Position numbers and translations under genes: made by a program
Part shown: positions 27,665-29,102 of the stretch, piece by piece
Numbering within the stretch: the stretch's first letter is position 1
Layout: every line of letters begins with the position of its first letter
The notes under the pieces: generated by a model
Seen by the model: the letters and a program-made list of their open reading frames with translations, nothing else
Database searches by the model: none
Told to the model about the DNA's origin: nothing
DNA from: Neophaeotheca triangularis
Taxonomy: Eukaryota
Length of the DNA stretch: 64,000 nucleotides
Assembly: GCA_054600435.1 (NCBI GenBank)
Contig: BAAIJX010000013.1
Coordinates: 186,001-250,000 of the forward strand
Direction of reading: 5' to 3'

Positions 27665-28285
27665 AGTGATGTGTTGATTGTTTCGACCGGTGGAGTGATC
27701 GCTGGGCTGCCTGCTCGTTTCGAGCGCAGGGTGCAGCCTGTCAGGCAATGATCCGCCGTCCATCATTGATCGTGCTGTACTCTTACCGATCTAGTGATGC
27801 GTAGGTAGGTGGTGCGGGTGATGAAGGCCAGAGCTTGAAGGGTGACGGACTGAAGTCGCATTGGAGCCAAACGGCAAGTCTTGGCAGATTCCCGCACGGG
27901 CGGAGGCGAGCAGACTTCACCTTCGCCCGTCCCGTCGTCACCTCCTCCAGTCCGATTATGCAATAATGATGAACAATATTGATATGGCGACAGGCAAAAG
28001 TTCTCGTAACTTAGATTTGCACCAATTTGATCTGCACCAGAACGATTCAGCGCTGGGGGCCAGGATGTAGCGCTGATAATTGGCTGATCCCGGGCGTCAT
28101 TGGCATAACTCAATAATCATTATCATTACTGACGGAAAGGCAGCCCCTCTACAAGTGCTTGAGGGAGCGTGATCTGAATGTGTGGTGCAGTGAAACGCAT
28201 CAATAATAATAATATTTAGACAACTACTCAAGGTACCCCTCAGAGCTAACGATCCACGAGTCGTTGAGACACTAATTGAAGCGAT

Positions 28286-28313
28286 TATATTCAGTAAAAG
28301 CATCACGTGATGC
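28286..28313 (+). promoter_or_regulatory. TATA-like element and 14-bp palindrome upstream of the tRNA gene
   Basis: TATATT at 28286-28291, about 30 nt upstream of the mature tRNA 5' end; perfect palindrome GCATCACGTGATGC at 28300-28313. Confidence 0.45.
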
Positions 28314-28337
28314 AGTTAGCCAGGATGCCGGAGTGGT

Positions 28338-28397
28338 GTAAGCCTTACCCCTTCAGGTAACCAACTCTTGGACAAGGAGCTAATGTGTCTCCTCTAG
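28338..28397 (+). other. Spliceosomal-type (U2, GT-AG) intron in tRNA D-loop
   Basis: GTAAGC donor, GCTAAT branch (28379-28384), pyrimidine-rich CTCCTCTAG acceptor; 60 nt. Removal restores GAGTGGTTAA and the D stem. Confidence 0.85.
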
Positions 28398-28415
28398 TAA
28401 CGGGTCAGACTTGAA

Positions 28416-28443
28416 CGCTTCCCATTGTAGGGAATGCAGTGCC
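28416..28443 (+). other. Canonical tRNA intron at position 37/38
   Basis: 28 nt starting one base 3' of the anticodon; no GT-AG ends; internal hairpin TTCCC/GGGAA; G at -3 can form the anticodon-intron pair with C32. Confidence 0.85.
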
Positions 28444-28467
28444 ATCTGATGGCTTCGGCCGCGTAGG

Positions 28468-28527
28468 GTAAGAGACCATAGTTCCTCAACATGTTCAGAC
28501 CGTCAGAGTGGCTCACAATTATGTTAG
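28468..28527 (+). other. Spliceosomal-type (U2, GT-AG) intron between G53 and T54 of the tRNA
   Basis: GTAAGA donor, GCTCAC branch (28511-28516; the same variant is used in the mRNA intron 8482-8541), TTAG acceptor; 60 nt. Removal restores GGTTCGAATCC. Confidence 0.85.
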
Positions 28528-28561
28528 TTCGAATCCTGCTTCTGGCGCATAGGTCATATCC

Positions 28562-28566
28562 TTTTT
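28562..28566 (+). terminator. Putative Pol III terminator (T5)
   Basis: TTTTT 14 nt after the discriminator base; no run of four or more T inside the 229-nt gene. Confidence 0.6.
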
Positions 28567-29102
28567 GCTTTGTTTGCTATGCTGGTATACACACTAGCAT
28601 TTTCCTTTTTGCTGGATGTGCGCCCCTGTAACAACAGTATGGTCCTTTCGTCTCGTCTCATCTCGCCTCGTCCATGCTCGTCTCGACGAAAGCTCGGCCT
28701 GGTTCCGGCAAAGCTCCAGTTCGCAGTGATGGTCGGAAAGGCTCGGGATCTCGACGGTGGAAGGTCGAGCGAGCGCCTACCTGAGCTACTACCATACTTC
28801 CCTTATCTATCTAAAAGGTAGGTATGCTCGGTATGTACCTTATCTAAATTCTACGGAGGTAAGTTAGCACACGTAGCAGTCCCCACTTCTAGTAGAAAAC
28901 ATGACCTACGGCCGGGGATAGCAACTCAGCAAGCGTACCTGGCTATCTCAGTATTGCCACCCTATGCGGGCCCGGGCTGTATTCAATCAGATCCCGCCTC
29001 TTGATAAGTTAAGTGTGTGCGTGTGCTTGTCTTGACGAGCTTGTTTTGATCTGCTCCTTTCCGCCACTCTCATCACGCTCTGCCTCGAGCACGCATTCGA
29101 GA

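Follow-up and report, generated by a model that had tools for sequence, protein, structure and literature searches.

Can a tRNA gene be interrupted by spliceosomal introns, so that its transcript would depend on the spliceosome as well as on the tRNA splicing endonuclease? This question is raised by positions 28319-28547 on the plus strand of a 64-kb stretch of Neophaeotheca triangularis DNA (the whole stretch is called the window below), which an initial annotation described as a tRNA-Ser(UGA) gene split by two GT-AG inserts and a canonical tRNA intron. The sequence at this locus matches that description, and our analysis confirmed the observation of a split tRNA-Ser(UGA) gene, whose parts are as follows.

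28319..28337, plus strand: exon 1, with the 5' strand of the acceptor stem, U8-G9, the 5' strand of the D stem and the D loop to about nucleotide (nt) 20
28338..28397, plus strand: insert 1, a spliceosomal-type intron of 60 nt that interrupts the D loop after about nt 20; it opens with GTAAGC, has CTAAT at 28380-28384 and closes with TAG
28398..28415, plus strand: exon 2, with the remainder of the D loop, the 3' strand of the D stem, and the 5' strand and loop of the anticodon arm; anticodon TGA at 28412-28414
28416..28443, plus strand: canonical tRNA intron of 28 nt at position 37/38
28444..28467, plus strand: exon 3, with the 3' strand of the anticodon stem, the long variable arm and the 5' strand of the T stem
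28468..28527, plus strand: insert 2, a 60-nt spliceosomal-type intron at nt 53/54, starting GTAAGA, with CTCAC at 28512-28516 and a TAG end
28528..28547, plus strand: exon 4, with the T loop, the 3' strands of the T stem and acceptor stem, and the discriminator G73

We ran the tRNA finder ARAGORN on the coordinate-joined pieces of this locus. With both GT..AG pieces (28338-28397 and 28468-28527) removed, ARAGORN called tRNA-Ser(tga), and with the middle piece retained it called tRNA-Ser(tga) with a 28-nt intron in the anticodon loop. No tRNA was called on the raw locus, after removal of the second piece only, or after removal of the middle piece only; removal of the first piece only produced a tRNA-Gly(tcc) with a 67-nt intron, which we rejected as spurious. 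ARAGORN placed the middle intron at 38/39 (28417-28444), and the usual position, 37/38 (28416-28443), as originally proposed, fits equally, both leaving a 7-nt loop. All stems of the joined 81-nt product pair: 7 bp in the acceptor stem and 5 bp in the T stem, each with one G-U pair, 3 bp in the D stem and 5 bp in the anticodon stem; the product also has a long variable arm. Its long variable arm and G73 are features of the tRNA-Ser(UGA) isotype; we take G73 to mark serine tRNAs and A73 leucine tRNAs. The cloverleaf, the pairing of its stems, the serine hallmarks (UGA anticodon, long variable arm, G73) and the difference between joined and raw sequence set out in the initial annotation were all borne out. 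So was its expectation that standard finders would miss the gene: across the 64-kb window ARAGORN reported 0 tRNAs with the intron search on or off, and Rfam gave no match at gathering scores, nor any match at E<=10 within 28200-28700.

We also asked how closely the cloverleaf fixes the borders of the two inserts, by shifting the cut points by up to 3 nt in either direction. The cut points of the T-loop insert were the tighter, with tRNA-Ser obtained in 11/49 shifts, and those of the D-loop insert were loose, with tRNA-Ser still obtained in 46/49. Because the cloverleaf alone leaves the boundaries of the first insert unfixed, these rest on its GT/AG ends, its extended splice signals and the restored D arm, which equals in length and loop sequence the uninterrupted D arm of an independent, related tRNA-Ser(CGA) found in metagenome contigs (see below). 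The two serine tRNAs also have the design of the variable arm in common.

The two 60-nt inserts carry the signals of spliceosomal introns of the U2-type GT-AG class, with 5' ends that match the GTRNGT-like consensus for U1 and U6 binding beyond the GT itself. Insert 1 has its CTAAT motif 14 nt before its 3' end and contains no T run longer than 2; insert 2 has its CTCAC motif 12 nt before its 3' end. For a local comparison we collected GT..AG segments that bridge long open reading frames (ORFs) in frame, a crude heuristic and not an annotated gene set. The 25 candidates found in the window are 41-154 nt long (median 86), start with GTAAG- or GTGAG-like sequences and carry CTNAY 8-34 nt from a terminal YAG. 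Both inserts fall within the range of these candidates in size and signals, in agreement with the proposal that they resemble the messenger RNA introns of the window. By contrast with what might be expected of introns cut by the tRNA endonuclease, a scan for bulge-helix-bulge structures (3-4-3; 16 registers per insert against 300 shuffles), which is crude and was run without a positive control, found at best 5 and 6 of 8 pairs in the two window inserts, values equalled or beaten by 248 and 127 of the 300 shuffles. In the same scan, all six independent GT-AG inserts considered in this study gave a best of 4-6 of 8 pairs, with 127-300 of 300 shuffles (42-100%) as good. Rfam likewise gave no match to a group I or group II ribozyme core at the window locus (E<=10), and the inserts are 51-62 nt long, against the hundreds of bases of such ribozymes.

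The positions of the inserts leave the elements of an internal (type 2) promoter for RNA polymerase III (Pol III) in place. Exon 1 contains an uninterrupted A box (28326-28336). In the DNA, the final two bases of insert 2 and exon 4 together read as a near-consensus B box, AGTTCGAATCC (28526-28536), the only B-box match in the window. There is no run of four T residues (T4) anywhere within 28319-28547. Two further features flank the gene.

28562..28566, plus strand: run of five T residues (T5), a likely Pol III terminator, 15 nt past the 3' end of the tRNA
28286..28290, plus strand: TATA-like motif 33 nt upstream of the 5' end of the tRNA, with a possible role as an upstream promoter element

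We searched metagenome contigs for further genes of this design with a general pattern: a T stem ending in GG, then GTAAG, 35-65 nt, YAG, and TTCGAATCC. The pattern matched at least 120 loci, which were examined with 400-nt flanks. Among the 120 matches listed, none had a tRNA over the T loop in raw DNA, and six did once the matched piece was removed. In a second screen, one more upstream GT..AG piece was taken out of each of the other 114 listed loci, giving 4743 variants and two loci, L025 and L048. We rejected the first of these, a tRNA-Arg(acg) seen after double removal, as a false positive with a mismatched structure and a coding-like context. Seven of the 120 matches listed are thus tRNA genes visible only after removal of an insert, and they represent three further kinds of gene. 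Only these 7 of the 120 matches listed have, besides a fully paired T stem, an A box, a T5 run and an upstream 7-bp complement to the acceptor. The other 113 listed matches to the GGGTAAG..YAGTTCGAATCC pattern yielded no credible tRNA after removal, and serve as a negative control; in two of them (L015 and L043) the T stem pairs without an acceptor complement or T5 run, and we attribute these to chance. Many of the chance matches are 74 nt long and lie largely in gut metagenome contigs (L008, L016, L026-L028, L030, L033, L037, L040 and others). Their shared length suggests one conserved, probably bacterial, sequence that fits the pattern by accident, and no tRNA was obtained from any of them.

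The first of the three kinds, tRNA-Ser(CGA), was found at five loci, each of which has 62 nt inserted at 53/54, a canonical intron of 32 nt and, 5 nt past the gene, a T5 run. These five loci amount to three distinct sequences, because L046 is identical to L062 and L013 to L068, with L003 as the third. The second kind, tRNA-Leu(UAG) at L095, is interrupted at 53/54 by an insert of 53 nt and at 37/38 by an intron of 16 nt. The third, tRNA-Leu(CAG) at L048 (contig Ga0302325_10204057, minus strand of the locus), is a second tRNA gene with three introns: a 51-nt GTGAGT..CTAAC..CAG insert at 7/8, right before the A box, another of 54 nt at 53/54 and, in addition, a canonical intron of about 21 nt. 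The L048 tRNA appears only with both GT-AG inserts removed, and T5 and T6 runs lie directly past the gene, 5 nt downstream. Both leucine genes have A73. ARAGORN initially called L095 as Arg(tct) and L048 as SeC(tca); once the 37/38 intron was removed, we assigned them to Leu(tag) and Leu(cag) instead. An Rfam search of five metagenome loci (E<=1) had as its sole match a sub-threshold tRNA in L095, at 27.9 bits against a cut-off of 29.

We next used the three distinct tRNA-Ser(CGA) variants (L046, L013 and L003) to look for selection, by aligning them and applying Fisher tests to the variable columns. The exons have 0/81 variable columns, the flanks 53/433 (12%), the GT-AG insert 13/62 and the canonical intron 1/32. 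Exon variability was lower than that of the flanks (P=6.6e-5) and lower than that of the insert (P=8.7e-6). The 13 variable sites in the insert all lie outside GTAAGA, ACTAAC and the final AG; the base before the final AG varies between C and T, as YAG permits. Invariant exons next to varying flanks and a varying insert indicate that the exons of the Ser(CGA) genes are under purifying selection. Such a distribution would be expected if the tRNA gene works and its insert has to be spliced, and not if it were a decaying pseudogene. The 53/54 insert of these variants is rich in A and C and poor in T (T 13-19%, A 42-47%), unlike many introns, which have a pyrimidine-rich look; this composition fits an avoidance of termination signals for Pol III.

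Judged by sequence, the window gene is one of at least four genes of this design, one of them demonstrably under selection. All six independent inserts in these genes begin with GT[AG]AG (GTAAGA, GTAAGT, GTGAGT and GTAAGC being the starts in the metagenome genes), have a branch-like YTNAY motif 10-14 nt before the 3' end, end in YAG and lack a T4 run. The search pattern imposed GTAAG on the three metagenome inserts at 53/54, and not on the two window inserts or on the 7/8 insert of L048. Within 32 nt downstream, 4/4 genes have a T5 run (5-27 nt past the 3' end), as do 5/112 control matches; in composition-matched shuffling a T5 run arose in 4-22% of trials per gene, the product of these frequencies being 2e-5. 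TATA[AT] is present upstream of 4/4 genes, at -33 in the window and at -47, -42/-40 and -46 in the three metagenome genes, and at 1/107 mock sites, a control that was not matched for composition. This motif may belong to a Pol II core promoter or act as an upstream element for Pol III.

The inserts occupy three positions: 7/8, before the A box (8-19); about 20/20a, after the A box; and 53/54, where the AG of the intron keeps the B box. The four genes all encode class II tRNAs (Ser, Ser, Leu and Leu), and each also has a canonical 37/38 intron; the class II bias may stem from the T-loop sequence in the search pattern. The inserts themselves are unrelated in sequence. The two window inserts show no similarity to each other (255/500 shuffles score as high), neither has a further copy in the 64 kb, and none of the 15 pairs formed by the six independent inserts is similar, the lowest value, 7/300 shuffles, not being significant after correction. 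This lack of similarity, in the 15 pairs and in the window pair, lends no support to a common origin of the inserts.

We also compared the window gene with its counterpart in X2, an independent run with the same organism label as the window and 58% of words shared, which represents a very close relative. A 2613-nt X2 contig covers the whole locus (28302-28900) with the same structure, differing by nine substitutions and one 9-nt deletion. Since the whole locus is intact in this contig, the DNA is not an assembly artefact. Six of the substitutions lie within the gene: one in insert 1 (28358), three in the 28-nt intron (28424, 28425 and 28434) and two in insert 2 (28501 and 28502). The three in the canonical intron, at 3 per 28 nt, are the densest in the locus. 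The exons differ at 0/81 positions and the removed pieces at 6/148 (Fisher P=0.07), with the splice signals untouched. The initial annotation had predicted conserved exons and diverging introns with intact splice signals at related loci; the direction of the difference and the intact signals agree with this, and the difference is short of significance. The joined, insert-free form of the gene was not found in four contig sets, which are probably DNA, so that its absence has no bearing on expression; besides X2, two of these sets (X3 and X6) contain only DNA downstream of the gene, and one (X5) ends within the first insert.

X2 has two forms upstream of the tRNA (28212-28331), with 1 and 11 differences per 120 nt, all 11 of them upstream of 28302; from 28302 onward there is one contig, at about the summed depth. 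Over the tRNA gene, a single sequence seems to be common to two X2 haplotypes or strains.

Protein-coding genes flank the locus. On one side lies a minus-strand gene with YVC1/TRPY1 channel domains, on the other a plus-strand MFS transporter gene, whose ORFs lie about 470 nt downstream of the locus, and beyond it a minus-strand gene for an Atg4-type peptidase C54. These neighbours identify the window as fungal nuclear DNA. In the spacer between the tRNA and the MFS gene, a 9-nt stretch at 28821 is missing from X2 and X6.

The reading we favour, with moderate confidence, is that the window locus is a real and probably working tRNA-Ser(UGA) gene of a filamentous fungus, with two spliceosomal-type introns and one canonical tRNA intron, transcribed by Pol III and processed by the spliceosome and then by the endonuclease. 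Pol III would transcribe a unit of about 245 nt; we propose this polymerase because the A box is intact, the B box is rebuilt by the AG of insert 2, no T4 run lies inside the gene and a T5 run follows it. The spliceosome would then remove both 60-nt introns by intron definition, as with fission-yeast U6 small nuclear RNA (snRNA). A cloverleaf would form only after removal of the inserts, allowing processing by RNase P and RNase Z, and the 28-nt intron would then be cut out by the tRNA splicing endonuclease and ligase. The tRNA endonuclease (TSEN) measures from the folded tRNA body, a dependence that would place the spliceosome first and the endonuclease second. We infer from sequence that the window gene is expressed, which polymerase makes its transcript, that the spliceosome is the remover and in what order the steps occur. 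The interpretation already offered in the initial annotation, in which both the spliceosome and the endonuclease would act on this transcript, is supported at the sequence level.

Several observations weigh against this reading. The A and B boxes are 200 bp apart in the DNA, well beyond the spacing in ordinary tRNA genes and unfavourable given the tolerance of TFIIIC. The internal exons, of 18 and 24 nt, are tiny, and the assembly of the spliceosome could face competition from La binding or from tRNA-like folding. A Ser-specific orthologue pattern gave 0 matches in the metagenome contigs, and the flanks of the metagenome loci contain no clear coding ORFs. The conservation signal for the window gene itself is weak, because the only relative compared is very close. 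The recurrence of 53/54 in the metagenome genes is not independent, because the search pattern imposed that position; positions 7/8 and about 20/20a were not set by it. To these may be added the missing positive control in the bulge-helix-bulge scan, which disfavours removal by an endonuclease, and the loose cut points in the D loop, which bear on whether the cloverleaf could be a product of chance.

That last possibility, a chance cloverleaf arising from the choice of the pieces removed, is refuted for practical purposes. The D-loop cuts tolerate nearly every shift, as noted, but the raw window contains no tRNA, the 113 chance matches among the 120 listed gave 0 credible tRNAs, and the 4743 double-removal variants gave, besides L048, one poor false positive. 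The product moreover has all of the serine hallmarks, and its D arm and variable-arm design recur in an independent tRNA-Ser. The main variant, although we consider it unlikely, is that RNA polymerase II (Pol II) transcribes the locus, either as a non-coding host or as the upstream part of the MFS transcript, with co-transcriptional splicing and release of the tRNA by RNase P and RNase Z. Spliceosomal splicing is ordinarily coupled to Pol II, the TATA[AT] motifs at -33 to -47 in 4/4 genes would suit a Pol II core promoter equally, the locus lies only about 470 nt upstream of plus-strand MFS ORFs, and a 200-bp spacing of the A and B boxes would be unfavourable for TFIIIC. The T5 runs 5-27 nt past the 3' ends of 4/4 genes and the lack of T4 runs in the inserts speak for Pol III, however, and the sparing of the A box, together with the B box left by inserts at 53/54, would be unexplained if the internal promoter were irrelevant. 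Nor is splicing confined to Pol II transcripts, since the Pol III transcript of the S. pombe U6 gene is spliced (PMC5855946).

It is also improbable that the locus is a recently disabled tRNA pseudogene that acquired two intron-like insertions, by intron transposition or from introner-type elements, and whose exons are intact through youth. The non-significant exon conservation of the window gene (0/81 against 6/148), the unmatched orthologue pattern and the lack of a joined form in the DNA contigs would fit a pseudogene. In a dead gene, however, two independent insertions with full splice signals that spare the promoter boxes and the stems would be unexpected; in the analogous Ser(CGA) gene, 81/81 exon bases are unchanged among variants whose flanks differ at 12% of sites; perfect cloverleaves occur in four independent genes, together with correct discriminators and with terminators; and the inserts are not repeats, with no copy in 64 kb and 15 unrelated pairs among the six. 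Very unlikely, in our estimate, is removal by protein alone, in which the tRNA splicing endonuclease would cut at non-canonical positions, as it does in red algae, nucleomorphs and archaea. Positions 20/21 and 53/54 are among the archaeal non-canonical positions, and non-canonical tRNA introns in the D and T arms occur in nucleomorphs and Cyanidioschyzon (PMC4090602). Against an endonuclease stand the bulge-helix-bulge scores of the six inserts, none above shuffles in a scan without positive control; the GT[AG]AG start, branch-like motif and YAG end of all six, needless for such an enzyme; the splice signals of the Ser(CGA) insert, invariant while its interior drifts; and the lengths of the inserts, 51-62 nt, compared with 3-24 nt for the non-canonical introns of nucleomorphs (PMC4090602).

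How does a tRNA gene of this kind compare with known systems? The closest parallel is U6 snRNA, which is made by Pol III. The only U6 gene of S. pombe carries an intron that the spliceosome removes, and U6 genes of fungi can have up to four such introns (PMC5855946). The available parts of the same paper list spliceosomal introns for U6, U2, U5, U1 and ribosomal RNA (rRNA) genes, leaving tRNA unmentioned, and cite their occurrence in the rRNA genes of ascomycetes, notably lichen-forming ones (Bhattacharya et al., 2000, cited in PMC5855946). In the available parts of a review of tRNA introns the string 'spliceosom' does not occur, and the eukaryotic non-canonical tRNA introns that it describes are those of nucleomorphs and Cyanidioschyzon, with bulge-helix-bulge structures (PMC4090602); elsewhere tRNA splicing is said to proceed independently of the spliceosome, and the classes of intron are treated as unrelated (PMC12530127, PMC13149111). 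In all three of these sources the two systems are taken to work on separate transcripts. These sources agree with the statement in the initial annotation that spliceosomal introns are known from fungal U6 and rRNA genes and not from tRNA genes. In the literature searched, which largely excluded subscription journals, we met with no account of tRNA genes containing spliceosomal introns.

Like the fungal U6 introns, the inserts described here would be short introns in a small Pol III non-coding RNA gene, with canonical signals and otherwise unconserved; U6 genes can likewise have several introns per gene, with lineage-specific gains. Unlike U6, the window gene would produce a transcript that also needs the tRNA endonuclease and ligase, and the internal A/B box promoter of a tRNA gene limits the sites open to an insert. 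Reverse splicing at the catalytic centre offers no explanation for the insertion sites in tRNA, because tRNA, unlike U6, is not part of the spliceosome. The spliceosomal introns of fungal rRNA genes are similar in being short GT-AG introns in structural-RNA genes not made by Pol II; they differ in polymerase (Pol I), in the large size of the host RNA and in that no second splicing system acts on the same transcript. The endonuclease-removed tRNA introns of Cyanidioschyzon merolae, of cryptophyte and chlorarachniophyte nucleomorphs and of Crenarchaeota resemble our case in that several introns occur per gene, at sites in the D and T arms in addition to a canonical intron, and in that such genes also escape eukaryote-mode tRNA finders. 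Those introns are defined by a bulge-helix-bulge, with no need for GT-AG ends or a branch site, whereas here we found no bulge-helix-bulge, and GT-AG ends and a branch-like motif are present and conserved. The 28-nt middle intron is of the same kind as canonical 37/38 tRNA introns, as are the 32-, 16- and about 21-nt introns of the metagenome genes; the 60-nt inserts, by contrast, lie outside the anticodon loop, where recognition by TSEN is not to be expected. Finally, introners, the multi-copy intron-generating elements of fungi and algae, are likewise short, bring their own splice signals and reach new sites, but the six inserts are mutually dissimilar, and those of the window are without another copy there.

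We tentatively propose, at somewhat less than even confidence, that spliceosomal introns in tRNA genes are a recurrent and overlooked class in fungi, and possibly in other eukaryotes, confined to the promoter-sparing positions 7/8, about 20/20a and 53/54. If this is true, Pol III pre-tRNAs are regular substrates of the spliceosome, some tRNAs need two unrelated splicing systems acting in a fixed order, and genome annotations systematically miss the genes concerned. ARAGORN and Rfam miss such genes, and tRNAscan-SE 2.0 seeks non-canonical introns in its archaeal mode only, with bulge-helix-bulge models (PMC8450103); hence the tRNA sets and decoding capacities described for fungi may be incomplete. 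What would be new relative to known introns in non-coding RNA genes is tRNA as a host class and the dependence of one transcript on two splicing systems. A tRNA needing both would widen the range of spliceosome substrates to pre-tRNAs and would be a second case of a spliced Pol III transcript, this time one unrelated to the spliceosome. It would also offer a natural system in which the spliceosome works without coupling to Pol II, and in which the ordering of folding, La binding, RNase P and TSEN could be studied. The promoter-sparing positions of the inserts would, in addition, provide a testable rule for intron gain in genes with internal promoters.

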